Assembly: GCA_024763135.1 (NCBI GenBank)
Contig: JANTGD010000001.1
Span: 1-54,002 of the forward strand
Source: Thiotrichales bacterium
Lineage (GTDB): Bacteria > Pseudomonadota > Gammaproteobacteria > UWMA-0217
Reading direction: 5' to 3'
Length of the DNA: 54,002 bases
Shown here piece by piece: positions 9,411 through 40,575 of this stretch (the first letter of the stretch is position 1; every line of letters starts with the position of its first letter). The position numbers and the translations under genes were made by a program. The notes beneath the pieces were generated by a model. It was not told the DNA's origin. It did no database searches and was given only the letters and a program-made list of their open reading frames with translations.

Positions 9411-9446
9411 AGCCCTCTTATTTATTTGAGTAATGTTTAAATAATA

Positions 9447-14975: not shown

Positions 14976-14993
14976 ATGTTTTCTTTATAGCGC

Positions 14994-15911: not shown

Positions 15912-15925
15912 GTCAGGCACACCAA

Positions 15926-24739: not shown

Positions 24740-27643
24740 ATGGAAAAGATTATTATTCGCGGCGCCAGAACCCACAATCTGAAGAATATCGATTTGGAGC
24801 TGCCACGCAACAAGCTGATTGTCATCACTGGGCTTTCTGGCTCAGGCAAATCTTCACTGGCATTCGACACCATCTATGCGGAAGGGCAACGTCGTTACGT
24901 CGAGTCGCTTTCGGCCTATGCGCGTCAATTCCTTTCAATGATGGAAAAGCCCGATCTCGATCATATCGAGGGACTGTCTCCCGCCATCTCGATCGAACAA
25001 AAAACAACCTCTCACAATCCTCGCTCAACTGTGGGCACAATCACCGAAATTTACGACTATTTGCGTTTGCTCTTCGCGCGTGCAGGCATCCCACGCTGTC
25101 CGGAACACCACACCAATCTCGAAGCCCAAACCGTCAGCCAAATGGTCGACCAAGTGCTGGCGCTGCCGGAAGGCACCCGGCTCATGTTGCTTGCTCCCAT
25201 TGTGAATGACCGCAAAGGAGAGCATGTGCAGCTGCTGGAACGACTCAAGGCGCAAGGGTTTATCCGGGCACGCATCGACGGTGAGGTCTATGATCTGGAT
25301 GCCCCGCCAAAACTCGACCTGCGCCGCAAACACAGCATCGATGTCGTGGTAGACCGCTTCAAAGTGCGTGATGATCTTCAGCTGCGGCTGGCCGAATCCT
25401 TTGAAACGGCGCTGCAATTGGCGGACGGTATCGCAAAAATCGGCTTTATGGACGATCCCGCTAAGCAAGAACTTGTATTCTCCTCCAGCTTTTCCTGCCC
25501 GTACTGCGGCTACTCATTACCAGAGCTTGAACCACGGATTTTTTCCTTTAACAGCCCAGCCGGCGCCTGTCCGACTTGCGATGGACTTGGGGTCATCCAG
25601 AGATTCGACCCCGAGCGGGTGATTACACACCCCGACAAGTCCCTTTCCGAGGGCGCCATCCGAGGGTGGGACCACCGCAACAGCTACTATTTTCAAATGA
25701 TTCAGTCATTGGCCGAGCACTATGGATTTGACCTGGACAAACCCTTCAAGCGGCTGGCAAAGCGCCATCGAGAAATGATCCTCTATGGCTCAAAAGGTGA
25801 AAGAATCGAGTTTACTTACACCAATGATCGCGGCGCAAGTTATACCCGCAGCCATGCCTTCGAGGGCGTCATTCCAAACATGCAGCGCCGCTTTCGCGAT
25901 ACTGAGTCGGCCGCTGTGCGCGAGGAATTATCCAAATACATGGTCACCACCCGCTGCCCGGACTGTGAAGGCAGTCGGTTGAAGCTGTCTTCCAGAAATG
26001 TCTTCGTCGCGGAACAGTCATTGCCCGCACTGACCGCATTACCCATCAGTGAAGTCTATGCTTTTTTCGACAGCCTCGCATTGCAAGGTCAGCGTGCCAA
26101 GATCGCGGAAAAAATCGTGCGAGAAATCAGCGAGCGTTTGAAGTTTCTCGTCAATGTGGGGCTGCAGTATCTGGCCTTGGATCGGGCCTCCGATACGCTA
26201 TCGGGTGGTGAAGCGCAGCGTATCCGACTGGCAAGCCAGATTGGTGCAGGGCTTGTGGGAGTCATGTATGTGCTAGACGAACCGTCGATTGGCTTGCATC
26301 AACGAGACAACCACCGCTTGCTGGAAACACTCAAACGACTGCGGGATCTCGGCAATACAGTGATCGTCGTTGAACACGACGAGGACGCTATTCGTCACGC
26401 CGATCACGTTGTGGATATTGGACCCGGCGCCGGCGTACATGGTGGGCATATTGTCGCTCAGGGCACGCCCAAACAAATCGAAAGAAATAGTACGTCGCTG
26501 ACCGGCCAGTACCTCTCCAAACGGCGCACTATTGAAATCCCTGCACAACGCTGGGTAGCATCGGACAGTAAGACACTCAAGATTCTGGGCGCCAGCGGCA
26601 ATAACCTCAAATCCGTCGACCTGGAAATTCCAGTCGGCCTGTTCACCTGCATCACTGGCGTCTCTGGCTCCGGTAAATCTACGCTGGTCAACGACACGCT
26701 GCTGCGTGCCGTTGCGCGCCATTTGCACAATGCTGCAGAAGAACCTGCCAGTTATACCGCCATCGAGGGGCTGGATTACTTTGACAAAATCGTTGCCATC
26801 GACCAAAGCCCCATTGGTCGCACACCTCGCTCCAACCCGGCAACCTACACAGGCCTGTTCACCCCGATCAGAGAGCTCTTTGCAGGTACGCCCGAGGCGC
26901 GCTCTCGCGGATATAAACCTGGCCGTTTCAGTTTCAATGTCAAAGGAGGACGCTGTGAAGCCTGCCAGGGCGACGGTGTCATCAAAGTGGAAATGCACTT
27001 TCTACCCGACATCTACGTCCCCTGCGATGTCTGTGGCGGAAAGCGTTACAATCGAGAAACCCTTGATGTGCACTACAAGGGAAAAAACATACATGAAGTA
27101 TTAGAGATGTCCGTGGAAGAGGCACTGCAGTTTTTCGATGCTGTCCCCGTACTGGCAAGAAAGTTGCAGACCTTGATGGACGTTGGCTTGTCTTACATCA
27201 CTCTGGGGCAGGCAGCTACCACGCTCTCCGGTGGTGAAGCCCAGCGCGTGAAACTAGCCCGCGAACTTTCTAAGCGCGAAACCGGGCGTACACTTTATAT
27301 CCTTGATGAGCCAACCACCGGATTACACTTTCACGATGTGGAGCAATTGCTCAGAGTCCTGCATCGTTTGCGCGATGGTGGAAATACCGTCGTGGTCATT
27401 GAGCACAATCTTGATGTGATAAAAACCAGCGACTGGGTCGTTGATCTGGGGCCGGAGGGCGGCTCTGGCGGAGGTGAAATCATTGCCACCGGTACCCCAG
27501 AACACATTGCGCATACGCCGACGTCGCATACAGGACGCTTTCTCAAACCACTGCTGTTTGACGAGGCTCAACCTGGCCCGGCAAAAGCGAAAAAGAAAAG
27601 CACACGCAAACGGCGCAAAACGGCTCGATCAAACTCCGCCTGA
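24740..27643 (+). CDS. uvrA: Excinuclease ABC subunit A
   Basis: Two ABC modules ([14 protein letters not shown] and [11 protein letters not shown]), zinc-finger CxxC pairs and LSGGEAQR signatures. Start assigned to the internal ATG at 24740 ([17 protein letters not shown]) instead of the track start at 24629, which overlaps ssb. Confidence 0.95.
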
Positions 27644-28132
27644 ATGCACGATCTCGTAGTAGATCTTTTCCAGCTCAGCCTTATGCTTGGTCTCCTCATT
27701 CGCCAGAAAAGTGAACAAATCCTTGATCGGACCAGGTTCCGCTGATTCTGCCAGACTGGTGTACTGCTGCATCGCAATATGCTCACGCCCCAAAGCGTAT
27801 TGCAATACGGCCTGATCATCTGGATTTTCGCCTAGATCTGGCAGGTGTACCGCATCAGAAAAGCGATGATCAGAGGCCGGCGTTTCAATCGCTTTTTCAA
27901 CCTCTTTTTCGAGCTCAGGATTTTCGGCCAGCGAGCTGAACAAATCATAGTGTTCCTGCTCTTCCTCCGCTAACTCCTCAACCAGATACCGAATCCGCTT
28001 ACTGACTTTGGGCGCTAAGTCGGTATAGAAATCACGCGCAGCACGCTCAAACTCAGTTGCGACTTTGAGGATGTCCTTCAGCGTTTTTTGAGATTTGATT
28101 CTTGCATAACTTTCACTTTCACCTTCACTCAT
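27629..28132 (-). CDS. Ferritin-like / rubrerythrin-family diiron protein without a rubredoxin domain
   Basis: Four-helix pattern with E...ExxH twice ([27 protein letters not shown]). Start placed at MSEGES. The 3' end overlaps the uvrA 3' end by 15 nt, convergently. Confidence 0.65.
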
Positions 28133-28377
28133 GCGCAATCCTCCAAGCATATACGGCAGACAAAGCGGACCAGACCGGCGCTTTACACAGGGTATTTGGT
28201 AACTATTCAGCGAGCGGGCGAATCATGAAGTAAAACTGCTCATATTGCTTCTGAAATTTGTCCGATCAAGGCGAAAAATGTGAGTTTACAAATGTAAATA
28301 ACCATTTTTAAACGTGGAGCTGGCGCATTTCAGAGGATAGCTGCGTAGTTACGGTATTTTTTTTGGCTACATCCTTA

Positions 28378-28682
28378 ACTAGTACCTCGTCCAGTTTAAG
28401 GAAGCTTCGATTATTTCAGGCGCGAGCAGATTGTGGTGAAAAATCGCCCAGTTCAAGGCGCGGATCGCACGGAATAGCTGGCTATTGCGAAGATCCGCAA
28501 CGAACAAGTGGGCGATTTTGCACCGTAATCTGCCGTGTTACGAATTGATCAAAGCCTCTTAATATGACGGAGTCAGTTGCAGTGCTTGACAAGGACGCTG
28601 CCATTGCCTGCGCACTGCGTATTGATATACGGCATCAACAACAGCCCTGAGCCCGTCTTTTTAAGCTAGACGATGTACTAGT
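28378..28682. repeat. Repeat family A, copy A2: internally deleted and interrupted by a family B element
   Basis: The copy reads ACTAGTACCTCGTCCAGT, then the B element, then TATGACGGAGTCAGTTGCAGTGCTTGACAAGGACGCTGCCATTGCCTGCGCACTGCG...CCCGTCTTTTTAAGCTAGACGATGTACTAGT. The ends and right half match A1 at 4301-4570. Confidence 0.7.
28396..28562. mobile_element. Repeat family B, copy B3 (167 bp), nested inside A2
   Basis: Runs TTAAGGAAGCTTCGATTATTTC ... GAATTGATCAAAGCCTCTTAA. It sits at the position where intact A1 reads AGCTTAAAATGACGG, and TTAA is present on both sides of the insert. Confidence 0.8.
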
Positions 28683-28854
28683 GTAGTGTTTCGACGGATT
28701 ATGGCTAAGCCCTGGCCTGTACGATTCGAAGTATAACCAGAAACTTTATGTTTCTCGGACAACCTCAAATAGTTTCATAAAGATTCGAGTGGATGGCGCG
28801 CCTCAATTTCACGAGAGTTGCATCCGAATCTATTTCGACGAGGTATCAGAAGAT

Positions 28855-30690
28855 TCAGACTTCATGCAGATCCTGAGTTGCCAAACAAGCGTCGATACTC
28901 GCTGCCACGCGATGCCCATCAGCCACGGCGTGCACCACATCGGGACCATTAACACAATCTCCCGCGGACCACAGCCAAGGTTCAGAAGTCCGACCTGCTT
29001 CATCGACCTTCAAGCGTCCACGATTCCACTCCAACGCTTCGGTCAGATCTTCGCCGAGTAGAGACACATCCGCCATTTGACCGATGGCCTCAACCACCAT
29101 TTCACCCTCATGAAACTGTTCATCTGAACTATCGTACTGAGGTGCAAACCGATGCTGCTCATCGAAAATAGACAGAACACGCCACGTACACAATCCGTTG
29201 AGCCGCCCCTGATCATCAATGCGACACGCTTGGGGGCCCCGACTATCAAGTATCGTCACGCCTTCCTCCAGAGCCTCTTTCACTTCGACTGGATCCGCCA
29301 AAAACTGATCCCTGGGTTCCAGCGCTGTCAGCGTAATCTGAACCTCGCCATAGGTTTGCTTCTGTAAGCGTGCCAGAGACCGAGCAATATCCATGGCGAC
29401 GTTTCCACCGCCAATGACAACTGCACTCTTCGGAATGTCAAAGGGTTCTCGCAGCGTAATCATGCGCAGCAAATCTACTGCGGCCTTGACCTGGATATGC
29501 TCAGACCCAGGAATCCGAGTCGATCGCCCCAACTGCAGCCCAATGGCAAGTACGACGGCATCGAATTCATCGCGCAACGAACTCATGCTGCGATCTTTCC
29601 CAATCTCACATTGGTAATGAATTTTCACGCCAAGCGAGGTTATCACATCAATGTCCTGATCCAATTTGTCATAGGGCAAACGGTATTCAGGAATTCCAAA
29701 CCGAGGCATGCCGCCAGCTTTTTCCAAGCGTTCGAATACTTCCACTTCATGCCCTTTCTTGACAAGGTCGAAGGCCGCAGTCAAACCCGCAGGACCCGAG
29801 CCAATCACTGCGATCCGTTTCCCCGTCGGGACCTGGACCCGGCCTTCCGCAGCAATCTGCTTCACCCGCTCATGATCCACCGCATCCATGGCATACCGTT
29901 TTAACCAGCGAATCGCAATGGGTTCCCCACGGTGCCCAATTGAACATGCCGTCTCGCAGCGATGTGTACATACGCGCCCGCAAACATGAGAAAACGGGTT
30001 GCTTTGATACATCCATCGGACGGCATCTTCCGGGCGGCCTTCCCATATCGAACGAATATACTCCGGTGCATCCATATGGGTGGGGCAGGCATCATGACAC
30101 ATACCACATTGCACGCAGCGAGAAGCTTCCAACAAGGCGTGCTGCGCATCATAGCCCGCAACGATTTCATCGAAATTGTCACTGCGACTTTGTGGCTCCA
30201 ACTCTGGCATTTCCTCACGCTCCAAATCCACCAGATCGGTGGTTGGCGTCTTGGTCCAACCTTCGGGATACGGGGTGCCATGCATACCATCGGCGCTTGG
30301 CAGCATGAAATAACTGTCGAGCTGATCCTCCGTACAGACATGCACATATTCGCGAGACAGACTAATCGCAGCAGTAGGACAGACATCCACACACAAAGCA
30401 CACCAACAACAGCGACCATAATCAATTGCCGGACGCAGTGGGCGAATGCCCTTGATGGGGTCCTCTTTGGCCTCCGGGACATGCACCATCGTAATGGCTG
30501 CATTATCACAAACTTTCTGACAAGTCCCGCAACCGATACAGGACTCCCAATCGTTCAAATGAAACCCGCGATAAGTCTCCGTAGCCGGTCGCGGCCCAAG
30601 CGGTTCAGTAACCGGTTTGCGTGCAAAGAACTGCAGCGTCTTGAGGGGATTTAAAATACTCCCCTTGTCTTTGTATTTGATATCTGACAT
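28855..30690 (-). CDS. Fusion protein: NuoI/MbhN-type 2x[4Fe-4S] ferredoxin domain plus GltD/SudA-like NAD(P)H-dependent FAD oxidoreductase
   Basis: N-terminus has CIGCGTCQKVCD and CCWCALCVDVCP. It is followed by the GltD N-terminal Fe-S region (CVQCGMCHDACP, NPFSHVCGRVCTHRCETAC), the FAD motif VIGSGPAGLTAA and the NAD(P)H motif VIGGGNVAMDIA. Start placed at the ATG at 30690 (MSDIKYK), sharing 1 nt with the upstream stop (TGATG). Confidence 0.8.
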   Translation of the reverse strand: MSDIKYKDKGSILNPLKTLQFFARKPVTEPLGPRPATETYRGFHLNDWESCIGCGTCQKVCDNAAITMVHVPEAKEDPIKGIRPLRPAIDYGRCCWCALCVDVCPTAAISLSREYVHVCTEDQLDSYFMLPSADGMHGTPYPEGWTKTPTTDLVDLEREEMPELEPQSRSDNFDEIVAGYDAQHALLEASRCVQCGMCHDACPTHMDAPEYIRSIWEGRPEDAVRWMYQSNPFSHVCGRVCTHRCETACSIGHRGEPIAIRWLKRYAMDAVDHERVKQIAAEGRVQVPTGKRIAVIGSGPAGLTAAFDLVKKGHEVEVFERLEKAGGMPRFGIPEYRLPYDKLDQDIDVITSLGVKIHYQCEIGKDRSMSSLRDEFDAVVLAIGLQLGRSTRIPGSEHIQVKAAVDLLRMITLREPFDIPKSAVVIGGGNVAMDIARSLARLQKQTYGEVQITLTALEPRDQFLADPVEVKEALEEGVTILDSRGPQACRIDDQGRLNGLCTWRVLSIFDEQHRFAPQYDSSDEQFHEGEMVVEAIGQMADVSLLGEDLTEALEWNRGRLKVDEAGRTSEPWLWSAGDCVNGPDVVHAVADGHRVAASIDACLATQDLHEV

Positions 30691-31832
30691 CAGCGATCCA
30701 CCTCTGGCGGGCACGCATCCAGTGAAAACATAATTTGCGCCACATCTTCGAGCCGCGCACCCTCAGCAAGCCATTCCAAAACCTGGACCGCATGCATGGA
30801 CGACGGCCCGCGGACATGCACTCGATAGGGTTTGTCCCCTCCATTTGAAACAGCATAATAGGCGAGCTCACCCTTGGAGGATTCAACTCGCGCATAGGTT
30901 TCACCTGCCGGTACATTCCAGGCCAGAGGGTTGGGGATCGGCGCCCGGACCGGCCCACCAATCGATGGCAGACGCTCAATAACCTGCCTCAAAATACGAA
31001 AACTTTGCTTCAATTCGGCACGCCGCACCATGGCGCGCGCCCACGCGTCACCTGCCGCTTCGGTAGGCACATCAAATTCGAGCTGTTCATACACCAAATA
31101 AGGATCATCCCGACGTACATCGAACGCCAGCCCGGTAGCCCGAAGATTCGGACCGGTAACACCCCACTCCAGCGCTTGCTCCTGAGTCATTGCGCCCACA
31201 TCCTTAGCACGCGTAATGAACACCTGGTTGGTAAACAAAAGATTGTCATAATCTGGCAGCCGAGATTCGAGGTAATCCAACGTCTGGCTGACCTGCTCCA
31301 AGAATCCTGGTGGAACATCCCGCCGCGTACCCCCTGGGATGTTGAAAATATGATAGACGCGGCCGCCCGTGAGGGCCTCGAATAAATCGAGTATCAGATC
31401 TCGGTCGGCAATTCCCCAATAGCTGGTCGTATACATGCCAGTGGTCGCAGCATGCCCGCCAAAGGTGAACAAATGCGCTGCAATTCGCGAAAGTTCGAGC
31501 TGCAGCACCCGCAGCCACTGAGCGCGTTCTGGCACTTCCAAGCCACACAAGTCCTCTACCGCCATAGAATAGGTGACTTCCATGGGCACGGGATCCGGTA
31601 CACAGATGCGCGGAACCAGGGCAATATTCTGGATCCACAAACGACCCTCCATCAGCTTTTCGAAACCCCGATGGAGATAGCCGCCATCGGCTTTTCCAGC
31701 GAGCACGACATCTCCATGCAATTTGAGTTTGAAGGCATAATTACCTTCGATCCCGGGATGATTGGGTCCGATAAAAAGTTCGTATTCGTTGCTCGGTGGA
31801 TGGCTCTGCGCCTGATAGTTTTCGGGCCTCAT
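30690..31832 (-). CDS. NuoD / group-4 [NiFe]-hydrogenase large-subunit homolog with incomplete metal ligands (MbxL/Ehr-like)
   Basis: Contains GPNHPGIEG, GYLHRGFEKL and NIPGG blocks. The L1 position reads PRICVPDP where hydrogenases have RxCGxC. The C-terminus reads SLDACPPEVDR where hydrogenases have DPCxxCxxR. Start at the ATG at 31832 gives an ATGA overlap with the upstream stop. Confidence 0.8.
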   Translation of the reverse strand: MRPENYQAQSHPPSNEYELFIGPNHPGIEGNYAFKLKLHGDVVLAGKADGGYLHRGFEKLMEGRLWIQNIALVPRICVPDPVPMEVTYSMAVEDLCGLEVPERAQWLRVLQLELSRIAAHLFTFGGHAATTGMYTTSYWGIADRDLILDLFEALTGGRVYHIFNIPGGTRRDVPPGFLEQVSQTLDYLESRLPDYDNLLFTNQVFITRAKDVGAMTQEQALEWGVTGPNLRATGLAFDVRRDDPYLVYEQLEFDVPTEAAGDAWARAMVRRAELKQSFRILRQVIERLPSIGGPVRAPIPNPLAWNVPAGETYARVESSKGELAYYAVSNGGDKPYRVHVRGPSSMHAVQVLEWLAEGARLEDVAQIMFSLDACPPEVDR

Positions 31833-32392
31833 CGACGCACCTCCTCGGGCCGGATCGCCACGCCACCCCCCTCTTCCTCCAGCTCCTTGAGCCAATCCGG
31901 GTGATAAGACTGCCAGTTGAAGGTTTCCTGTACGTAGGCTTCCGCATCAAAATCCTTACGCATGGGGGGTGGGCCATCCCACTCAGTGAGAATGAATTTT
32001 TCCATATGCGGACTGCCCTCGAAATAGACGCCGAACATTTCAAAAATGTCCCGTTCAAAAAAAGCCGCAGGCTTATACAGATCGTACACCGAAATATATC
32101 GAGCTGTTTCACGAGGAATACGGGTATGCGCCGAAACTAAATGATTAGATTCGTAAGACCATAGGTGGTAAACCAGCTCAAACTCGTTGTCTTCAATCCA
32201 ATCGACACAGCTGATGGCCGAAAGATGCACGTAGGAAGCCCGGCCTTTCAAAAGCTCCAATAAACCAGGCAGTGCCTCACGCGTCACATCGATGCGTACC
32301 CGGCGCGGGCTGGTCTGCCGATACTCGAGGGACTCGAGTTCGCGTAAAATGGTAACCAGGTGCGTGTCTAATTCGCGCTCAGTCATGCTCAA
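31829..32392 (-). CDS. NuoC / hydrogenase 30-kDa subunit homolog (MbhK/MbxK-like)
   Basis: 187 aa. Complex I 30-kDa-like core (LSAISCVDW..FELVYHLWS..ERDIFEMFGVYFEG). Confidence 0.8.
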   Translation of the reverse strand: MSMTERELDTHLVTILRELESLEYRQTSPRRVRIDVTREALPGLLELLKGRASYVHLSAISCVDWIEDNEFELVYHLWSYESNHLVSAHTRIPRETARYISVYDLYKPAAFFERDIFEMFGVYFEGSPHMEKFILTEWDGPPPMRKDFDAEAYVQETFNWQSYHPDWLKELEEEGGGVAIRPEEVRR

Positions 32393-32395
32393 AAC

Positions 32396-33103
32396 TCACT
32401 TTAAGCGCAGTTTATGCGCGACAAGGGGCTGCTGATACTGCTGCAGAATACGCGTATGTTCACCTTCTGTCTCCGGACCGGCCAAACCGTAATGTTGCGC
32501 CTGACCGATGACATCAGTGGGTGTTTGCCAGTTGTCACCAAACAGATGCTGCTGGTTACCCAGGTAATAGTCATAGCGTTGATAGTAATCCTTCCACGGC
32601 TCCGTCTCGCCCGACTGGATATTGGCCATCAACGCGCGCATCCCTTCGATGACGGCCTCTGGTCTCGGCATGCAGCCCGCGATGTATAAATCCACCGGCA
32701 GATATTCACTAAGCTTTTTGGCCGTGGCGTAGCTTTGCCAGTACATCCCGCCATTGACCGTACAAGAGCAAATGCCAATCACATACTTAGGGGAGGGCAT
32801 CTGTTCATAAGTCAAAATAATGCGCTTCAGCGTCTTTACCGAAACATAGCCCGTTACCAATAGAATATCCGCCTGACGCGGCGTCACCATCGGTTGAATC
32901 CCCAAGCGCTCCATGTCAAAGCGTGAGGTCATGGCCGGAGGCAGCTCAATAGCGCCACAACCCGTACAATAGTGCAGCATGTACATAGAACGCGACTGCG
33001 CGAAGCGCACCAGCTCGTCGAAGACACCTGCCAAAGGATTGGTGCGCGCCTCCTCCGGTGCGTGTTTTTCGGTATGAATAGGAATTTTGCTCAGATCGCT
33101 CAT
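32396..33103 (-). CDS. NuoB / hydrogenase small-subunit homolog (MbhJ/MbxJ-like), [4Fe-4S]
   Basis: 235 aa. Cys motifs YCTGCGAIE, GICSCTVNGG and GCMPRPEA occupy the positions of the NuoB N2-cluster ligands. About 40 aa of N-terminal extension. Confidence 0.8.
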   Translation of the reverse strand: MSDLSKIPIHTEKHAPEEARTNPLAGVFDELVRFAQSRSMYMLHYCTGCGAIELPPAMTSRFDMERLGIQPMVTPRQADILLVTGYVSVKTLKRIILTYEQMPSPKYVIGICSCTVNGGMYWQSYATAKKLSEYLPVDLYIAGCMPRPEAVIEGMRALMANIQSGETEPWKDYYQRYDYYLGNQQHLFGDNWQTPTDVIGQAQHYGLAGPETEGEHTRILQQYQQPLVAHKLRLK

Positions 33104-33115
33104 CGGCTTACCTCT

Positions 33116-34006
33116 TTAATACATAACGAATGCGATGCCCAGCAATCCAGCCAATACTGGCCACTTCCACATTAGGCGTAGCATATCTTCAGTGCGATAG
33201 CGGGGGAATGTAAAAGCAATCATCATGGGAATAGCAACAACCGCAAAAATCTTGATTAGAAAATCTAACCAATGGGTGCCCCCACCTAGAAACAAGGTCG
33301 TATACAGCACACCCGCGGTATACAGTTGGAAACACTGCATGACAAAAAGCCCGCCCATGTACTTACCGCCCATTTCCACCATTGGGCCGGTGGCAATTTC
33401 AGCGGGCGCCACATAGATCTCGAACGGCTGTTTACCCATCATGCCTTGGAGTGCAAACAGTCCAGCCAATGCCAACAGTGGCATTTCAAAGGCCCCCCAG
33501 CCTTGGGCCTGTTGCAGGCTGATCATCTCTGACAAATCCGTGGTGCCGTAATGCCAGGCCACACCAAAAATCACGATGACAAAAGGGATGTCATAGGCGA
33601 GCATGGCAGTCAAAGCACGAGAAATTCCGATCGATCCATTGGGATTAGCGCATTGCCCCACACCCAATGCCAACCCCAGCGAAGGAATCATAAGAAAATA
33701 AGTCAGCGTAATAATACCACCCTTGTCGCTCAGACCATCCATGCCCGGCACGGGTAGTAAGCTTTCCGCCGCCAAGTACCCACCCACGGCCATAATAATA
33801 CCGATGTCGTGAAGCAACCCATGCGAAACTTGCGTAGTCTTGCTGTAGAATTTGATAATGTCGATTAGAGGTTGAAAAAACGGCGGACCAACACGCCGTT
33901 GTAATTTCGCCGCAATTTTGCGCAGCATCAACACCATAAAAAGTCCGATCACAAAAGCCACAATCGGCATTAAGATAATATCCGCGATCCGCTTTCCAAT
34001 CTCCAT
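33116..34006 (-). CDS. NuoH / MbhM-like membrane subunit
   Basis: Polytopic, with a NuoH-like RRVGPPFFQPLIDIIKF block. Start placed at the internal ATG at 34006 (MEIGKR), sharing 1 nt with the upstream stop (TAATG). Confidence 0.78.
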   Translation of the reverse strand: MEIGKRIADIILMPIVAFVIGLFMVLMLRKIAAKLQRRVGPPFFQPLIDIIKFYSKTTQVSHGLLHDIGIIMAVGGYLAAESLLPVPGMDGLSDKGGIITLTYFLMIPSLGLALGVGQCANPNGSIGISRALTAMLAYDIPFVIVIFGVAWHYGTTDLSEMISLQQAQGWGAFEMPLLALAGLFALQGMMGKQPFEIYVAPAEIATGPMVEMGGKYMGGLFVMQCFQLYTAGVLYTTLFLGGGTHWLDFLIKIFAVVAIPMMIAFTFPRYRTEDMLRLMWKWPVLAGLLGIAFVMY

Positions 34007-35874
34007 TAGCTCACCATCCAAAGCACAATCACGGCCATCGCCAGCATGGGTAAGGCGGGTTGCATTAAACGATAGAAGGTCGCTGACCACTGCGCCAAAA
34101 AGCTCGCCAGTGACGCCACTACGGATTCAAACCACAGAAAACTGCCTCGATACCAGTGCCCGATTCTATGCATCAAGCCCGCGTAGAAATGGTCGGAATA
34201 GTGGTAACGCACATCGGCACTGAGGAAATGTCCACCGGCATAATTATCAAGTTGATGGACCGGCTCTGAACGTCCCGTTGCATAGAACAGCAAAGCACTG
34301 ACCCCGAAACCGGCAAATAACACCAGGACAAGCATTATCATGTCCAACCCCCCATGTGCATCAGCCACACCACCGAGTGTGTGTGGTAGCACCGGCAAGC
34401 CTACTGCTGCCTGCACTGCAGCTACCCAATCCAACACGATCCCAGGCATAAACCCAGTAAGAAAAATGATCAATGCAAGTACCATCATGGGAATGACCAT
34501 ACTCCAGGGGGCCTCTTGCACGGGTTCATGCTCCAGACGCAGCTGCCCAAGAAACGTATTATGAATGAGCTTGTATACCGATAGAATCGTTCCAAGTGTA
34601 CCGATGACCGAGGCCACAAATAATAACGGCATGCCCTCGCTCAGCAACGAACGATACACCATCCATTTAGATACAAAACCATTCATCGGGGGGATACCCG
34701 CTAAACCAATAATGCCCACAAGCATCGCCACAAAAGTCAGGGGCATGCGGGTAAACAAGCCACCAAGTTTATTGAGATCGGCAGTCCCGGTGCGATACAC
34801 CACAGCAAATACCGCCAATAGCAGTACTGCTTGGTTGGTGGCGTAATTAAAGATATGCAGAATACCGCCCGCAGAACCCAATGCGCTTGCCGATAGAATC
34901 CCCATCAGCATGTAGCCACCTTGACCAATGCCGTGCCACGCCAACAACCTGCGCGCATCATTCTGCTTCAGTGCCGTATAGGTGGGCAAGATAATGGTAA
35001 AAGCCGCTATCCACATCAATACATCGCGCAGACTCAGGAATGTTAAAGGGATGTGAACTTCAATCAGCCTGATCAAACCAATCAACTGAACCCAGACCAG
35101 CATCATTCCATAGAGTCCCATTCGGGAAGAAATAGCGCCTAGAAAAGCCATACCTGGCCCGGGCGTTTCTGCATATGCGCCCGCCTGCCAAAGGTGAAAG
35201 GGTAAAATCCCCATTTTTACGGCGAAACCCGCCCCAAAGAGCACGGTAAGCAGAGTAATCAGTCCTACCGACCACTGATCGACCGCGGCCATAAAATCCG
35301 CATAATTCAATGATCCAGTCAAATGGAACACGATACCCAAGGCCGCCAGCATTGACATAGCACCGGCCGTGGCATAGGTGATATAGCGCAAAGACCATTT
35401 CAGAGCGGGACCAGCTGCTAACGCCATAAGTAGAAAGCTGGCCCAACTCACCAGTTCCCAGGCGATAAATAAGGATAAAAAGTCACCGCTAGCCAGCAAC
35501 AACAACATCGTAAACACGTTGAGCGCAAGTGCAAATTGAAGCCAACCAGGTGAGCGACCCGCTGCCCGATAGTGATCACTCCAGGCCCCAGTAGCATAGA
35601 CGCTGCTGACCAATCCAGCTCCTAGCGTAATTAAAGCGAAGTACCAGGACATTGCATCATAGCGCAAGACCAATGGTTGCCCGAACAAATCCCAGGCCAG
35701 CCCGGAAGTAACCGCCGGTGCACCGTAACCCAAAGGCGCCAACAAAAAGAGTACCAGAAGTTGTAGACCTAAACCCAACGAAGCAACATAACCTACCCAA
35801 CGCGTTCTGACTGTCGCCAAAGTAGCGATCAAGGTTCCTAATGCCGTTAACAATAGCGCGTCCAGTAGACTCAT
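34006..35874 (-). CDS. Antiporter-like subunit, MrpD/NuoL-family (second copy, MbxH-prime-like)
   Basis: 622 aa, about 16 or more predicted TM helices, proton-antiporter-M type blocks (FIAWELVSWASFLLM, WHGIGQGGYMLMG). Confidence 0.8.
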   Translation of the reverse strand: MSLLDALLLTALGTLIATLATVRTRWVGYVASLGLGLQLLVLFLLAPLGYGAPAVTSGLAWDLFGQPLVLRYDAMSWYFALITLGAGLVSSVYATGAWSDHYRAAGRSPGWLQFALALNVFTMLLLLASGDFLSLFIAWELVSWASFLLMALAAGPALKWSLRYITYATAGAMSMLAALGIVFHLTGSLNYADFMAAVDQWSVGLITLLTVLFGAGFAVKMGILPFHLWQAGAYAETPGPGMAFLGAISSRMGLYGMMLVWVQLIGLIRLIEVHIPLTFLSLRDVLMWIAAFTIILPTYTALKQNDARRLLAWHGIGQGGYMLMGILSASALGSAGGILHIFNYATNQAVLLLAVFAVVYRTGTADLNKLGGLFTRMPLTFVAMLVGIIGLAGIPPMNGFVSKWMVYRSLLSEGMPLLFVASVIGTLGTILSVYKLIHNTFLGQLRLEHEPVQEAPWSMVIPMMVLALIIFLTGFMPGIVLDWVAAVQAAVGLPVLPHTLGGVADAHGGLDMIMLVLVLFAGFGVSALLFYATGRSEPVHQLDNYAGGHFLSADVRYHYSDHFYAGLMHRIGHWYRGSFLWFESVVASLASFLAQWSATFYRLMQPALPMLAMAVIVLWMVS

Positions 35875-37334
35875 GGCAGCTCCCTCCCGGCACCAAGCAC
35901 CGTGGTGACATACAATTCTCGATCCGCCAGCTGGTCCGCTACTCCCGCCAGCCAGTTACCCACAGGTGTAATCATGACAGTAGCGATCAATAAAACAGCG
36001 CCGAGAATCAGTGACGGCCCCAGACTGCCGGCATCATGCACAGGCACTTTAGCGGACCGTGACTCTGAACCCGCTTTGAATAAGCCAAGTCCAAACCGAA
36101 ACAGATAGTTGGCTTCGAAAACCGTTGCCAGCAAAATAATGCCCGCGCCCGTCCAATATATCCAATTGTCCTGTCCGAGCAGACCGAGTAGCGTCATTAG
36201 TTTCGCCCAAAATCCAGGCAAAGGAGGGACACCAATCAAAGACAATGCAAACAAAATGAACAAGCCGGCAGCCCATGGTGATTTCCACCCCGCGCCGGCC
36301 AATCCGGCAAAGCCCCCAGACCATCGCTCGGCCAATACAAACAATGCGGGTTTGACAATAAGGTGATGCATGGCCACTGCGAGACCAGCGAAGAGTCCTG
36401 CTTGCCCAGGAATGGAAAACGCCATGAGCACCAACCCCAGCTGACCAATGGAAGAGAATGCCAGCATGCGTTCAAAGTCTTTTGCATGCCAGGCAGCCAG
36501 TTCGCCGAGTAATACGCCTAACGCTCCGATAACTAGCAGTAGCGTAAGGGCTTCAGGCTGAGGGAATAATAAGACCAGCAAGCGGATTATCACTATGATT
36601 GCGAGCTTCGAGATCAAGCCTGCCAGCAACGCAGATACTCTTTGCGAAGCCGTCGCGTACACTTCAGGAACCCAGATGTTAACGGGAAACAATTCCGCCT
36701 TCACACCAATCCCCAGCAGTATCAGCACAAACGCTGTGAGGCCCAAAGTATTATCCAGTGTGGTTGCCGAGAGCAGCGTTAAATGTGCGAGGTTGAGCGT
36801 TCCGGTTTGAGTATAGATGAGCGCGATTCCCGTGAGCGCCATCACGGTACCCATGCCACTGATGATGACGTAGCGCAATGTGGCTGCCAGTGCCGCACCT
36901 GTTTTTGGAGCGGCAACCAGTCCAAAGGAGGCCACCGAAACGAGTTCATAGAAAACGTAAAGATTAAACAGATCGCCCGAGAGCGCCATACCGGACGCGG
37001 CGGACACCATTAACAACATCAACGCAGCAACGCGGGCATCGCGCCAGGCTGCATGCGGCCACAATAACAATGCCAGCAAAGAGGTCGCCAACGCAAAAAC
37101 GAGTGCGAGTTGATCCAAATAGAAGGTGATGCCCAACGGAGGCTGAAAGCCACCCAGTTCGATATGACTGGGAACGCCCCCTGAATCTCGCCACAGTACA
37201 ATGACTACCAAACTCGTCAGTAGGAGTAATGCAGGCCCCAATAGCCTCCCTACCCACCCAACACTCCGTGCACCGACCGGCAAAAGAAAAGCCCCCAACA
37301 AGGGCAGCGCGACCACCAATGCGATAAGATTCAC
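35871..37334 (-). CDS. Antiporter-like subunit, MrpD/NuoM-family (MbxH-like)
   Basis: 487 aa polytopic protein with YVFYELVSVASFGLVA and FSSIGQLGLVLMAF blocks typical of MrpD/NuoM/NuoN. Confidence 0.8.
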   Translation of the reverse strand: MNLIALVVALPLLGAFLLPVGARSVGWVGRLLGPALLLLTSLVVIVLWRDSGGVPSHIELGGFQPPLGITFYLDQLALVFALATSLLALLLWPHAAWRDARVAALMLLMVSAASGMALSGDLFNLYVFYELVSVASFGLVAAPKTGAALAATLRYVIISGMGTVMALTGIALIYTQTGTLNLAHLTLLSATTLDNTLGLTAFVLILLGIGVKAELFPVNIWVPEVYATASQRVSALLAGLISKLAIIVIIRLLVLLFPQPEALTLLLVIGALGVLLGELAAWHAKDFERMLAFSSIGQLGLVLMAFSIPGQAGLFAGLAVAMHHLIVKPALFVLAERWSGGFAGLAGAGWKSPWAAGLFILFALSLIGVPPLPGFWAKLMTLLGLLGQDNWIYWTGAGIILLATVFEANYLFRFGLGLFKAGSESRSAKVPVHDAGSLGPSLILGAVLLIATVMITPVGNWLAGVADQLADRELYVTTVLGAGRELP

Positions 37335-37798
37335 GAGCGCCCCTCCTCTGCCGCAACCGTCGGCCCGATCACCTCTCTGCCCGAAGGCTCTTCTTGGCTT
37401 AGGTCTCCGGTCACACCAGCTTGAGCATCAATGTCCGCCTGCATGGCAGCACGAATCTCGTCGATATCCAGACTGTGGTAGGCCTCCTTGACTCGAATCG
37501 CCAAGCTGAGCGCCAAGGCCTGAATACCTACTCCGATGACGATCGCTGTCAACACCATCGCCTGAGGGACAGGATCCACCATCTGCTCTGGCCAGACACC
37601 CGCCACCATAATCGGGGCATGCCCATGCAACCGATATCCAGCGATGACCAGCATTAAGTTTGCACCTGCCTCTGCAATTGCTAAAGACAGAATGATGCGA
37701 AAGAGGTGCCGGCTCCAGATAATACCGACTAAACCAATTGCAATCAGACCAATCGCACCGGTATAGAGAATCCATTGAAGGTCGAACACCATACTCAT
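37331..37798 (-). CDS. MrpC / NuoK-like subunit (MbhG-like) with hydrophilic C-terminal tail
   Basis: 155 aa. Three TM helices with an AIAEAGANLMLV core, then an acidic tail of about 50 aa. Confidence 0.72.
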   Translation of the reverse strand: MSMVFDLQWILYTGAIGLIAIGLVGIIWSRHLFRIILSLAIAEAGANLMLVIAGYRLHGHAPIMVAGVWPEQMVDPVPQAMVLTAIVIGVGIQALALSLAIRVKEAYHSLDIDEIRAAMQADIDAQAGVTGDLSQEEPSGREVIGPTVAAEEGRS

Positions 37799-38481
37799 GT
37801 TTCACTACCCTCGTACACAAGATGCGCTAAAAGTCCCGCTAATTCCGCTCCCACTTTAAGCCCCAAAACGAGATACAAAATCGGTAATGAGCCGGCGGAG
37901 AGTAATTGCCCCGGGCTTCCCGTCCCAAACAGGGGTTGAAGAAACGCCCCGCCTTGAAACAGTGCGATCAGGCCAATTACAATAAATGCACTACCGGCCA
38001 AACCTTCTGTCACGGCCAAACCAAAGTGCCTGACCTGAATGCCCGGACGCGCCAGAAGGGGCAGAAAAAAAGCAGCCGCCAAAATGACGCCACCTTGAAA
38101 ACCACCCCCTGGCGTAAGGTGGCCATGCAGGATAATGTAAAATCCAATCACGAGCATGAGCGGAAAAAGTAGCTGTGTACTGATTCGTAACACGTTGCCC
38201 GCCGGCGCTTGGGCTTGACGCTTTCCACCGCGACGTTCCAATACGAGTCCCGCGACCAGCGAAGCAGTAAAGAGAATCGCAATTTCTCCCAAGGTATCAA
38301 TACCGCGATACCCTAAGACGACAGCCGTTACGATATTCGCCGTCCCTGTCGTTTCAGGCGCTTCCTGTAAAATGGCCTGACCCACTACCATAGGCGCTGC
38401 GCCTGGTTCGAATTCCGCAACGACCACCAGTAAGAAGAATGCCAATCCCGCAGCGAACAGTGGGCTCGTCAGATTTCTCAT
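37795..38481 (-). CDS. MbhE-plus-MnhB (MrpB)-like fused membrane subunit
   Basis: 228 aa. IVTAVVLGYRGIDTLGEIAILF (MbhE-type) followed by GHLTPGGGFQGGVILAAAF (MnhB-type). Confidence 0.72.
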   Translation of the reverse strand: MRNLTSPLFAAGLAFFLLVVVAEFEPGAAPMVVGQAILQEAPETTGTANIVTAVVLGYRGIDTLGEIAILFTASLVAGLVLERRGGKRQAQAPAGNVLRISTQLLFPLMLVIGFYIILHGHLTPGGGFQGGVILAAAFFLPLLARPGIQVRHFGLAVTEGLAGSAFIVIGLIALFQGGAFLQPLFGTGSPGQLLSAGSLPILYLVLGLKVGAELAGLLAHLVYEGSET

Positions 38482-38756
38482 CGATTTTTCTCACGTTCAT
38501 CTGTCGCGGACGCTGCGCCCGTCTGCGTTAAACCAAGGCGTCTTAGCGCCAAAGCCAAAATCAAACTCGACAAGCCGGCTCCAACTGCCGCTTCGGTCAT
38601 TGCAACATCCGGTGCTTTAAGGAGCAAAAACAGAACAGACAAAGCCAGCGAGACGACCGATGCTGCGGCAACCGCTGCCACGTGGTTATTAAAAAAGATT
38701 ACCGCCAACGCAGCCAGCAACATGACCACTACCAATAGACCGGTTATCCAAATCAT
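38478..38756 (-). CDS. MbhD-like small membrane subunit (MrpA C-terminal-domain homolog)
   Basis: 92 aa, three TM segments, APDVAMTEAAVGAGLSS block. Confidence 0.65.
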   Translation of the reverse strand: MIWITGLLVVVMLLAALAVIFFNNHVAAVAAASVVSLALSVLFLLLKAPDVAMTEAAVGAGLSSLILALALRRLGLTQTGAASATDEREKNR

Positions 38757-39061
38757 GGCGCTTTACCCTCGGATCGATCCGCTTGCCAGGGTGCCACACC
38801 GGTGACATGCAAGGCACGCGCCAGCGTCGAAGACCCCACAGGACTTGTGAATAACACGAAACCCGCGATGCAGACCAGCTTGGCCCACCAATGTGGATAG
38901 AGCATACCAACCCCGATCAACATGGCGATCACACCCAAAGTGGCTGCTTTTGTCCCGGCCTGAATGCGATTGTAAGTATCTGGCATGCGGACCAAACCTA
39001 AGGCAGCCAAAAATGCAAACAATGCACCTGCAAGCAAAAATAAATCAGCGAAAATTCTCAA
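38753..39061 (-). CDS. MrpG/MnhG-like subunit
   Basis: 102 aa. LGLVRMPDTYNRIQAGTKAATLG signature of PhaG/MnhG. Confidence 0.8.
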   Translation of the reverse strand: MRIFADLFLLAGALFAFLAALGLVRMPDTYNRIQAGTKAATLGVIAMLIGVGMLYPHWWAKLVCIAGFVLFTSPVGSSTLARALHVTGVAPWQADRSEGKAP

Positions 39062-39324
39062 GAATGTTCTCCTTCAATCGCACGTGCTATCGCCACCACC
39101 CCGACAAATGCCAATGCTCCGTACACCAAAGCCACATCCAGATAGACAGGATTCGAGAACCATGCAGCAACGGCCACCAATCCGGCAGTAATTATGACGG
39201 ATAACGTATCGGCGCCGACCACTCGGTCCAATGCGCTCGGCCCCCTGATGAAACGGAAGAATGCCAATGCAATGGCCATCCCTAAAATAATGGCAGCGAG
39301 TACTTCAAGTAGATTCAAACTCAT
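39058..39324 (-). CDS. MrpF/MnhF-like subunit
   Basis: 88 aa. FRFIRGPSALDRVVGADTLS signature. Confidence 0.8.
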   Translation of the reverse strand: MSLNLLEVLAAIILGMAIALAFFRFIRGPSALDRVVGADTLSVIITAGLVAVAAWFSNPVYLDVALVYGALAFVGVVAIARAIEGEHS

Positions 39325-39830
39325 TTCAAAAAGCCCGATATCCAGCGCTCGAATCCCCCTGCGACAGCCTCGGTGACTGCCTGGCGATCCGCTTCTTCTG
39401 GTACATTGATCCAGTGAACTAAGAGGCGCTCCTCTTGCAGCTCGACGGTGAGTGTGCCGGGGGTGAGCGTAATACTGTTTGCCAACAACATGCGCCCCAG
39501 CGACGAGGTCAAGCCCGTGCGCACTTCGACGAAGCCAGGACGAATGGGCAAAGATGGGCTGAGCACCCTCCCCGCAAGATCAAAATTGGCTCGAAGCAGC
39601 GCGTAGAAAAAGTAAACGAGATAAGCGATAAGAAACAGAAAGGCGCGGGGACTGAGAATCAAACCATTGAATACCCCCAATTGCTGACGCGAGACCGCAC
39701 TGACCACAAGCGCCACGAGCAGGCCGGCGAGCAGTTCTTCAGTCGCCAAAGAACCAGTGAGAAGGACCCAGAGCAATAAGCTCGAAAGGAATACAATTGA
39801 GTAGCTGCGTAGGCTTACACGCTGTTCCAT
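39321..39830 (-). CDS. MrpE/MnhE-like subunit (first gene of the operon)
   Basis: 169 aa. ANFDLAGRVLSP...LANSITLTPGTLTV MnhE blocks. Confidence 0.78.
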   Translation of the reverse strand: MEQRVSLRSYSIVFLSSLLLWVLLTGSLATEELLAGLLVALVVSAVSRQQLGVFNGLILSPRAFLFLIAYLVYFFYALLRANFDLAGRVLSPSLPIRPGFVEVRTGLTSSLGRMLLANSITLTPGTLTVELQEERLLVHWINVPEEADRQAVTEAVAGGFERWISGFLK

Positions 39831-39862
39831 AGCCAGGAACCCTTCGTCGATCTAGAGTCCCC

Positions 39863-39891
39863 AGAATAGGGAAACCTTACAACGATTGCAA
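39863..39891 (-). promoter_or_regulatory. Candidate sigma70-type promoter for the 13-gene operon
   Basis: On the minus strand, TTGCAA (39891-39886), a 17-nt spacer, then TATTCT (39868-39863). This lies about 30-60 nt upstream of the ATG at 39830, and a GAAGG Shine-Dalgarno candidate lies between. Pattern match only. Confidence 0.3.
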
Positions 39892-40319
39892 TAAATCGAG
39901 CGACCGCCACACGCGACTACACGTGCACAAGGATTGCGCAAAAACGCCCGCTCTCGGTGCAAAAGAAAAGCTGTATAGCTAGGTTCACGCCGCGGTAGAG
40001 AATCCTTTAAGATCCGCCGTTGACGCACCCCCTACCGCGGACACCGATGCCACCCTAAATCTTGAGCCTGCCGGGAATGTACCTGAACGAGCATCTATAA
40101 TGAATAAGACAGCCCATAGTAAAGCCGAATACAGAACGCCTCAGATTTTTCATGTTAAAGCAATAATTCCGGGGATAGCTCTGGAGTTGCTAAGCAATCC
40201 TAACACCGGGCCGTAACATCTAGAGTGCTCTCCACAGTCAGGATGCTGGGTGCGATTCCCGGTGCTACGTCCCCTTTGCGTTAAAAAATAGTCATTGTTT
40301 GATAAACTTGCGTTCTTTG

Positions 40320-40466
40320 TTTAGCAGGCTGTTGAAAAACTCTCAGGTGAGTGCGAGACAAGGCAAAATCTGTAGAAAAAGCGCAGTTTACACGCAGTAA
40401 ATGAGCATTTTGAGCCAAAATTAACGCTGGATCGTGCCAGCTGAGAGTTTTTCAACAACCTGTTAG
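40320..40466. repeat. Repeat family C: about 147-bp palindromic MITE-like element, single copy in this window
   Basis: The left arm TAGCAGGCTGTTGAAAAACTCTCAG pairs with the right arm CTGAGAGTTTTTCAACAACCTGTTAG. The arms of about 24-26 nt are nearly perfectly complementary. The arm core resembles the family B end (CTGTTAAGGAAGCTCTGAT). Confidence 0.6.
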
Positions 40467-40575
40467 ATCTGTCGCATGTCAGAGATACCCAAAGCGGTTA
40501 CGACACATTGACCACCTACTGAATAGAACGACTAGCCTGTATTATTTTGGTGCAAGTCGTTTTGAATAAAATCTG

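Follow-up and report, generated by a model that had tools for sequence, protein, structure and literature searches.

A bacterial homolog of the NiFe hydrogenase large subunit with two vestigial ligand cysteines is the probable L subunit of an NAD(P)H-linked Mrp-Mbx/MBS-type membrane oxidoreductase

We analyzed a homolog of [NiFe] hydrogenase large subunits encoded at positions 30690-31832 of a 54,002-nucleotide stretch of DNA from a Thiotrichales bacterium (assembly GCA_024763135.1, contig JANTGD010000001.1, positions 1 to 54,002; hereinafter, the window). The gene very probably encodes the L subunit of a 13-gene membrane oxidoreductase of the Mrp-Mbx/MBS type, which would be linked to NAD(P)H and would perform sulfane chemistry at the iron-sulfur cluster of its J subunit. 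With the protein, here called L, the known Mrp-Mbx/MBS family gains one more member, which falls in its bacterial GltD-fused subgroup. The initial annotation of the window had pointed to two cysteines, each retained from a NiFe-binding pair, with acidic residues in place of their partners; these two Cys and two acidic replacements are the known signature of the family, so that the observation is real but ordinary.

Vestigial NiFe-ligand motifs of the L subunit

The gene and the segments that define its active-site region are as follows (window coordinates; A1 is the alignment described below).

30690-31832, minus strand: gene of the L subunit (380 aa plus stop), an MbsL/MbxL orthologue with the NuoD / NiFe large-subunit fold (open reading frame; Pfam PF00346, E=1.1e-79)
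31740-31760, minus strand: beta1-beta2 loop of L, H25-P-G-I-E29-G30-N31 (alignment A1 and homolog conservation)
31590-31610, minus strand: vestige of the N-terminal NiFe ligand motif, R75-I-C77-V78-P-D80-P81 (alignment A1)
30693-30719, minus strand: vestige of the C-terminal NiFe ligand motif, D372-A-C374-P-P-E377-V-D-R380 (alignment A1)

The open reading frame (ORF) of 380 codons occupies positions 30693-31832, followed by the TGA stop at 30692-30690. It overlaps both neighbours: its ATG at 31832 forms ATGA together with the stop codon of the NuoC-like gene upstream, and its TGA shares bases with the ATG that starts the following gene, which encodes the N subunit. Nucleotides 31613-31590 encode PRICVPDP (Cys77 at 31604-31602, Asp80 at 31595-31593), and nucleotides 30725-30690 encode SLDACPPEVDR and the stop (Cys374 at 30713-30711, Glu377 at 30704-30702); upon rechecking the ORF and the nucleotide positions, the motifs and residues given in the initial annotation proved correct. 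The C-terminal residue is Arg380, without a cleavable extension.

L was aligned by MAFFT with five related subunits (alignment A1), the sequences of Pyrococcus furiosus MbsL and MbhL being taken from PDB alignments, and those of HycE and NuoCD from the annotated genome of Escherichia coli K-12; Nqo4 is that of Thermus thermophilus. The segments aligned at the N-terminal and C-terminal ligand motifs are:

Window L: R75-I-C77-V-P-D80 / D372-A-C374-P-P-E377-V-D-R380
P. furiosus MbsL: RICVPE / DNCPPDIDR
P. furiosus MbhL: RMCGIC / DPCLSCTDR
E. coli HycE: RVCGIC / DPCYSCTDR
T. thermophilus Nqo4: RMDYLH / DPVMGDVDR
E. coli NuoCD: RIEYLG / DFVMSDVDR

In this alignment with MbsL, MbhL, HycE and NuoD-type subunits the retained cysteines fall in NiFe-ligand columns: Cys77 and Cys374 occupy columns 1 and 3, Asp80 and Glu377 columns 2 and 4. 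Hence the first Cys of each pair is indeed kept, and the second is replaced by Asp and Glu, respectively. Judging from A1, the first and third NiFe-ligand cysteines of a hydrogenase ancestor persist as Cys77 and Cys374, with Asp80 and Glu377 replacing the second and the fourth. L has only three cysteines, and the third one, C96, varies among the 120 closest database homologs (79-100% identity); if three residues were placed at random, we calculate a chance of about 2.5e-4 that two of them fall in two of the four named columns. All 120 of these homologs have C-D-C-E at the four ligand columns, and the C-terminal dodecapeptide FSLDACPPEVDR is identical in all of them. The cluster representatives of true hydrogenases have C-C-C-C in 16 cases out of 16.

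Other catalytic positions have changed as well. Gly30 occupies the column of the catalytic Glu21 of MbhL, and a canonical NiFe centre is impossible because two ligands are missing and the Glu21 column holds this Gly, in agreement with the initial annotation. Its further statement, that the pocket is not the quinone pocket of complex I, also holds, as Glu29 occupies the column of Nqo4 His38, and Val78 that of Nqo4 Tyr87.

Relation to known systems

The best PDB match of L is MbsL from P. furiosus (6U8Y_L, E=1e-119, residues 14-380, 52% identity over the full length), with weaker matches to Nqo4 (4.7e-75), MbhL (2e-39) and HycE (4.4e-32). Hydrogenase models match L only weakly. L is 84-85% identical to the corresponding proteins of tubeworm symbionts.

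By sequence comparison, L, J, M, H' and N are orthologous to chains of the P. furiosus MBS structure (6U8Y; the complex was formerly called MBX): J, M, H' and N have their MBS counterparts as best matches, and the same 13-gene Mrp-type arrangement is present with the same gene order. The ligand motifs of MbsL, RICVPEP and LDNCPPDIDR, correspond to RICVPDP and LDACPPEVDR here, with Asp and Glu exchanged between the two acidic positions. MbsL also lacks the equivalents of Nqo4 His38 and Tyr87 and of MbhL Glu21, as stated in the structure paper (PMC7684303). The differences lie elsewhere. The host is a bacterium, an uncultured, mesophilic, sulfur-oxidising gammaproteobacterium that by sequence similarity is akin to Sedimenticola and to the symbionts of tubeworms and lucinids; the archaeal N subunit is free-standing and ferredoxin-dependent, while here about 450 aa of a GltD/NfnB-like NAD(P)H flavoprotein are joined to N in one polypeptide; and the operon is followed here by a rubrerythrin-like gene.

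MbsL keeps two of the four NiFe cysteines (C85 and C385) beside the proximal cluster and has lost NiFe binding; the C85A/C385A variant of MbsL and the C25A variant of MbsJ show wild-type activity on dimethyltrisulfide, and the unique iron of the proximal [4Fe-4S] cluster in MbsJ, which is held by three Cys, has been named as the place of catalysis (PMC7684303, PMC8165549). The initial annotation had mentioned that archaeal MbxL/MbsL is described as keeping only two cysteines. This is not only correct, but is the whole explanation, the protein being an MbsL orthologue. The suggestion of a novel pocket did not survive the comparison, since P. furiosus MbsL already shows C..[DE] / C..[DE].

The bacterial mbx-like operons, in which we include those of Thermotoga and proteobacteria, the Riftia symbiont and T. 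maritima MBX, show no difference of substance from the one studied here; they form the subgroup to which the window complex belongs, and their function is inferred throughout. They share with it the Mrp module, the gltD-related flavoprotein at the NuoI position, the terminal rubrerythrin gene and a NuoD homolog in which the first and the third NiFe cysteine remain as vestiges. In the mbx-like operons of Thermotoga and proteobacteria NuoI is replaced by a gltD-related flavoprotein (Degli Esposti 2015, PMC4758237); such operons often end with rubrerythrin, and their NuoD homolog has vestigial Cys (PMC4758237). In related ancestral Nuo complexes the vestigial cysteines are the first and third ligands, at Thermus positions 86 and 403 (PMC4758237), which in A1 are the columns of C77 and C374. 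The NiFe cysteine pairs separate hydrogenases from their paralogs MbxL, FuoD and NuoD (PMC6085437). The putative Mrp-Mbx complex of the Riftia symbiont is co-expressed with the reductive tricarboxylic acid cycle, its direction in vivo being listed as unknown (PMC11636981), and mbxA of T. maritima is induced 4.4-fold by elemental sulfur (PMC9431562).

Each element of the finding is thus already in the literature, and there is nothing new in the two-Cys vestige: it is a published hallmark setting MbxL/MbsL apart from both true hydrogenases and NuoD, and finding it once more changes nothing. The present analysis adds the near-invariance of the acidic residues in a family where the Cys appear to have been lost at least twice, and an NADH-type motif in the flavoprotein of the window clade.

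More distant relatives differ in the functional positions. Group 4 [NiFe] hydrogenases (MbhL, 6CFW_L; HycE, 7Z0S_E) share with the window complex the fold and ancestry, the L/J/K/M/N set with an antiporter-like module, and Cys at columns 1 and 3; however, L is only 27-31% identical to them, has Asp/Glu at ligands 2 and 4, and lacks both the catalytic Glu and the C-terminal processing extension. Complex I subunits (NuoD/Nqo4/49-kDa) share the fold, 36-41% identity, the acid at the fourth-ligand column and the end ...DR, whereas L has Cys in place of Nqo4 Asp86 and Val403, lacks His38 and Tyr87, and has a partner J with CxxC rather than Cys-Cys.

Conservation of ligand columns among related loci

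A species-level scan, with one genome per species, yielded at least 597 loci, and the best 80 of them were examined. Among these, Gammaproteobacteria are represented by Sedimenticola, Candidatus Thiodiazotropha, tubeworm symbionts and Thiomargarita, and Betaproteobacteria-type metagenome-assembled genomes (MAGs) by Thiobacillaceae and Hydrogenophilales. Other bacteria are Spirochaetes, Bacteroidales, Melioribacter, Thermotogae, WOR-3, Hydrothermota, Planctomycetota, Sulfurovum and Caloramator; archaea are represented by Thermococci, DHVE2 and Thermoplasmata. The order M-J-K-L-N(-GltD) is kept in every related locus that covers these genes. N is fused in frame to a GltD-like domain in 58 loci and stands alone in ten: besides the archaea, these are one Synergistota MAG, two Clostridia, three genomes of the Sulfurovum type and a Bacteroidetes contig whose end truncates the gene.

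Residues at the ligand columns were counted in those L proteins, 76 in number, in which none of the four is missing:

Column 77: Cys in 62/76
Column 80: Asp/Glu in 76/76
Column 374: Cys in 60/76
Column 377: Asp/Glu in 75/76 (the one exception is locus L022, situated at a contig end, where the C-terminus is garbled)

One group of Cys-less forms reads N-E-V/T-E and N-D-A-E; in the other, C-E-Y-E gives way to A-E-Y-E. In a neighbour-joining tree rooted on HycE (no bootstrap) these are two separate groups nested inside the Mbx/MBS clade, and both retain the same operon and the fused GltD domain. This topology suggests that the cysteines of L were lost at least twice inside the family. As the losses occurred in nested lineages with the same operon, the cysteines are dispensable on the evolutionary scale, consistent with the data on the P. 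furiosus mutants. Comparison of the acid counts with those of Cys indicates that it is the carboxylates that are the constrained part. As far as the searched literature shows, this family-wide constraint is not discussed in the MBS papers. Since the acid at the fourth column is also found in complex I, only the column-80 acid is distinctive.

In some relatives 170-690 bp are inserted between the L and N genes (L006:10141-10763, L009:10144-10547, and also L023, L027 and L063). The insert of the Ctena orbiculata symbiont (L009) contains a 120-aa ORF at 10182-10544, for which inspection by eye suggests a four-helix-bundle fold.

J subunit and the proximal cluster

The presumed partner of L at the active-site chamber is encoded next to the K gene:

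32396-33103, minus strand: J subunit, NuoB / hydrogenase small-subunit-like, proximal [4Fe-4S] cluster residues C46-T-G-C49, C114, C144 (6U8Y_J, E=1.3e-64)

The alignment of J with 6U8Y_J is gap-free. As in MbsJ, the CxxC loop is three residues shorter than in E. coli HycG (gaps of one and two residues), and J carries C-T-G-C rather than the tandem Cys-Cys of NuoB. In the MBS structure the first Cys of this CxxC is non-ligating, and the loop shortening has been tied to coordination of the cluster by three Cys (PMC7684303). The equivalents of C49, C114 and C144 are invariant across the 80 related loci, whereas about 25 of the 80 (Bacteroidales, Melioribacter, Sulfurovum, some Spirochaetes) have Gly in place of C46 (C25 in MbsJ). 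With Gly so frequent at the first position and the other three Cys invariant, the family as a whole seems to coordinate the proximal cluster by three Cys.

In Caloramator australicus RC3 (L067, NZ_CAKP01000082.1) the J gene contains an in-frame TGA at 7932-7934, exactly at the position of MbsJ Cys25 and window Cys46 (context LHY*TGCGAVELPP), the ORF being otherwise intact; in the related locus L056 this position is Cys. A hairpin begins 10 nt past this TGA (-19.8 kcal/mol, z = -1.6, alone not significant). The codon may encode selenocysteine, or else it reflects an error of sequencing.

N-GltD fusion protein and its coenzyme

The gene following L encodes a fusion protein:

28855-30690, minus strand: N subunit (NuoI/MbsN-like, two [4Fe-4S], residues ~1-150) fused to a GltD/NfnB-like flavoprotein, 611 aa (Pfam, PDB)

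Its first ~130 residues have 6U8Y_N as the best match, and the rest matches PDB entries 9BOV_A, 9N5U_A, 4YLF_B and 5JCA_L. Pfam identifies Fer4, Fer4_20 and Pyr_redox_2, and the NCBIfam model PRK13984 scores 795.6 bits, under its cut-off of 946. The GltD/NfnB-like part adds two [4Fe-4S] motifs along with sites for FAD and NAD(P)H, features also present in members of the NfnB/SudA/GltD family (T. maritima NfnB, 4YLF_B; P. furiosus NfnI-L, 5JCA_L; glutamate synthase small subunit, 6S6S_G; E from 1e-46 to 1e-72). Unlike in these proteins, the domain is joined here to a NuoI/MbsN-type dicluster domain, and no electron-bifurcation partner is evident.

The nucleotide-binding site differs too. At the end of the second strand (N-GltD residues ~441-467) the Tyr-Arg-Arg of the family (NADPH-type) is replaced here by Ala-Leu-Glu-Pro-Arg with a six-residue insert, and the window clade generally has T-A-L-E-[D/E/P] after this insert. 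Bacteroidales, Thermotogae and WOR-3, among others, share Y-R-R-R with the NfnB-like PDB homologs, and Leu-Glu motifs (x-L-E-x) similar to that of the window occur in Spirochaetes and in the Cys-less N-E-V-E clade. An acidic residue at this position of the Rossmann fold usually goes with NADH rather than NADPH. The Leu-Glu motif therefore suggests that the coenzyme in the window clade is probably NADH.

Proposed mechanism and its direction

By homology, L would contain neither a NiFe centre nor a quinone site, and redox chemistry would take place at the proximal [4Fe-4S] cluster of J, held by the three invariant Cys. The Cys pair of L would be a dispensable vestige lining the L/J chamber. The domain content of the N-GltD protein suggests that electrons are exchanged between NAD(P)H and the cluster chain, not delivered from ferredoxin as in archaeal MBS. 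The predicted path goes from NAD(P)H via FAD and two clusters of the GltD domain to two clusters of the N domain and further to the proximal cluster in J. Sulfane sulfur would be reduced at this cluster, in the L/J/M chamber, and the reaction would be coupled to the movement of H+ or Na+ through the Mrp-like membrane arm.

The redox potential of NAD(P)H is about -320 mV, and that of S0 or polysulfide/H2S about -260 to -270 mV; with NAD(P)H as the partner, the driving force would amount to just about 10 kJ for each pair of electrons. The value quoted for MBS driven by ferredoxin is 41 kJ per two electrons (review, PMC8165549). Given this difference, the bacterial enzyme is probably readily reversible, and its direction may differ from that of MBS. 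In sulfur-storing autotrophs it could serve either for disposal of reductant onto stored sulfur under anoxia, or for ion-gradient-driven formation of NADH from sulfide or polysulfide.

Several observations weigh against the assignment to an NAD(P)H-linked sulfane oxidoreductase with dispensable cysteines in L. To our knowledge, no bacterial GltD-fused Mbx complex has been biochemically characterised or purified, and we infer its substrate, coenzyme and direction. The activity of the P. furiosus mutants was tested on a soluble subcomplex with dimethyltrisulfide (PMC7684303), so that the Cys may still have a role in the intact membrane complex or with natural polysulfide. The invariance of Cys77 and Cys374 in 120 of 120 close homologs implies purifying selection in that clade. 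The NCBIfam equivalog model of NuoD, NF004739, gives L 438.5 bits, above its cut-off of 360. Finally, structure prediction adds nothing: the AlphaFold2 model of L, built from a 34-sequence alignment (79-100% identity), has a mean predicted local distance difference test score (pLDDT) of 65 and is unusable at the pocket, where residues 50-79 and 366-380 have pLDDT <50. With this model Foldseek ranks 6u8y_L on top, at a template modelling score of only 0.67.

Alternative explanations

Several other readings of the gene were weighed. The carboxylates Asp80 and Glu377, and not the cysteines, might be the constrained remnant of the NiFe site with a real role in the chamber, and the NADH-type, GltD-fused subgroup of gammaproteobacteria might operate near equilibrium and possibly in reverse; we consider this conceivable, if on the whole unlikely. 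The carboxylates may tune the three-Cys proximal cluster or handle the sulfide/polysulfide product. In the reverse mode the complex may function as an ion-gradient-driven sulfane-sulfur (sulfide/polysulfide):NAD+ oxidoreductase in sulfur-storing autotrophs, and if so, reductant for CO2 fixation would be far cheaper than via reverse electron flow through complex I. The question of interest is the function and direction of the NAD(P)H-linked bacterial version, rather than the cysteine vestige itself.

According to the older Mbx hypothesis, the complex would be a ferredoxin:NAD(P)+ oxidoreductase, in which GltD forms the NAD(P)+-reducing exit and no sulfur chemistry occurs in the L/J pocket. Such a function has been proposed for mbx-like complexes (PMC4758237) and for Mesotoga Mbx, and the NAD(P)H module is present in the window complex. 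However, the GltD domain, through its fusion to N, sits at the far end of the cluster chain, the docking place of ferredoxin in MBS, which leaves a chain from NAD(P)H to the proximal cluster of J with no obvious second entry point. Energy coupling in complex I as well as MBH and MBS depends on the chemistry in the L/J/M chamber, which also counts against this function. Moreover, the P. furiosus Mbx itself was later shown to be a sulfane reductase (PMC7684303, PMC8165549), and we find the older hypothesis rather improbable in the present case.

The initial annotation had suggested that Asp and Glu could line a new substrate or metal site, and one may extend this to a site of two Cys and two carboxylates, functionally essential and situated beside the proximal cluster. 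The invariance of C77, D80, C374 and E377 among the close homologs would fit such a site, as would the retention of the acids in nearly all related species-level loci, on which the MBS papers are silent. Still, the C85A/C385A enzyme of P. furiosus has wild-type activity, Cys were lost in the two nested lineages with the same operon (N-E-V/T-E; C-E-Y-E leading to A-E-Y-E), and the fourth-column acid is Asp or Glu in NuoD of complex I as a standard. The suggestion could not be upheld, and little credence can be given to an essential new site.

Public annotation treats the gene differently: NCBI and JGI name homologs of L "NADH-quinone oxidoreductase subunit D", and L would then be a genuine NuoD of a quinone-reducing complex I-like enzyme. 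The curated NuoD models give a mixed picture: NF004739 scores L and its relatives above the cut-off, which accounts for this label, while for L TIGR01962 (339.6 vs 459.35) and NF008974 (326.8 vs 522) stay below theirs. Besides the TIGR01962 score, other features speak against a genuine NuoD: the columns of Nqo4 His38 and Tyr87 hold Glu and Val; J has C-T-G-C, not Cys-Cys; the membrane arm is of the Mrp type; and each subunit tested has an MBS chain as the best match. A genuine NuoD is therefore very improbable, and the NuoD label on MbxL-type proteins is likely a systematic mis-annotation, the quinone-site residues being absent. Under the subunit D label, applied to L and to hundreds of relatives, a second complex I-like enzyme goes unnoticed that is widespread in sulfur-oxidising symbionts and many anaerobic phyla.

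An active hydrogenase, with the missing ligands due to a sequencing or frameshift error or to a non-canonical ligand set, has practically no standing: it is favoured only by the homology to NiFe large subunits and the weak matches to hydrogenase models, while the ORF is unbroken and overlaps its neighbours at the start and stop codons, 120 independent homologs have identical motifs, the MbhL Glu21 equivalent and a C-terminal extension for an endopeptidase are missing, and, as the initial annotation had noted, there are no hyp or endopeptidase genes in the window (none among the scanned ORFs of at least 110 aa of the 54 kb, the rest of the genome being outside that scan). The sequencing-error, active-hydrogenase and quinone-site readings were all rejected, given the intact ORF, the motifs of the homologs and the absence of Glu21, His38 and Tyr87 equivalents.

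Operon structure and neighbouring genes

The operon assigned here to the Mrp-Mbx/MBS family consists of 13 co-directional, tightly packed genes, running from 39830 down to 28855 on the minus strand with overlapping stops and starts, and has the complete Mrp-Mbx layout. In addition to the L, J and N-GltD genes listed above, it contains:

31829-32392, minus strand: K subunit, NuoC-like (PF00329, E=6.6e-29)
33116-34006, minus strand: M subunit, NuoH-like membrane anchor (PF00146; 6U8Y_M, E=1.6e-57)
34006-35874, minus strand: H' antiporter-like subunit, MrpA/NuoL-like, 622 aa (PF00361; 6U8Y_X, E=2.2e-51)
35871-37334, minus strand: H antiporter-like subunit, MrpD-like, 487 aa (PF00361; NCBIfam PRK08377 and MrpD models)
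37331-39830, minus strand: remaining Mrp module (Pfam), comprising the six genes below
37331-37798, minus strand: MnhC-like (Pfam; PF00420, PF04039/PF20501 and PF13244 for this and the next two genes)
37795-38481, minus strand: MnhB/MbhE-like (Pfam, as above)
38478-38756, minus strand: MbhD-like (Pfam, as above)
38753-39061, minus strand: MnhG (Pfam; PF03334, PF04066 for MnhG/MrpF)
39058-39324, minus strand: MrpF (Pfam, as for MnhG)
39321-39830, minus strand: MnhE (PF01899)

The start of the M subunit was adopted from a 296-aa gene call on an identical contig (L083). Downstream of the operon lies one more gene:

27629-28150, minus strand: rubrerythrin/ferritin-like di-iron protein (PF02915, E=2.1e-12)

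Among the related loci, a rubrerythrin-like gene follows the operon in gammaproteobacterial relatives only. The gap between the N-GltD and rubrerythrin-like genes is about 700 bp here (28151-28854), compared to 20-250 bp in relatives; no convincing small ORFs were found in it. One terminator-like hairpin is located at 28460-28445, ahead of the rubrerythrin-like gene. A promoter and terminator scan of 27400-40700 left the operon ends undefined, with fewer promoter-like sites than in shuffled sequences, and an Rfam scan of the whole window gave zero matches at gathering thresholds.

Apart from the operon, the window contains a low-GC island at approximately 8000-16000 (GC 0.36-0.37, compared to about 0.53 elsewhere). 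Its genes encode an ABC-2/Wzt O-antigen exporter, several family-2 glycosyltransferases and a WsaF-like rhamnosyltransferase, and it is flanked by dTDP-rhamnose and UDP-sugar genes. The island is probably a horizontally acquired O-antigen cluster.

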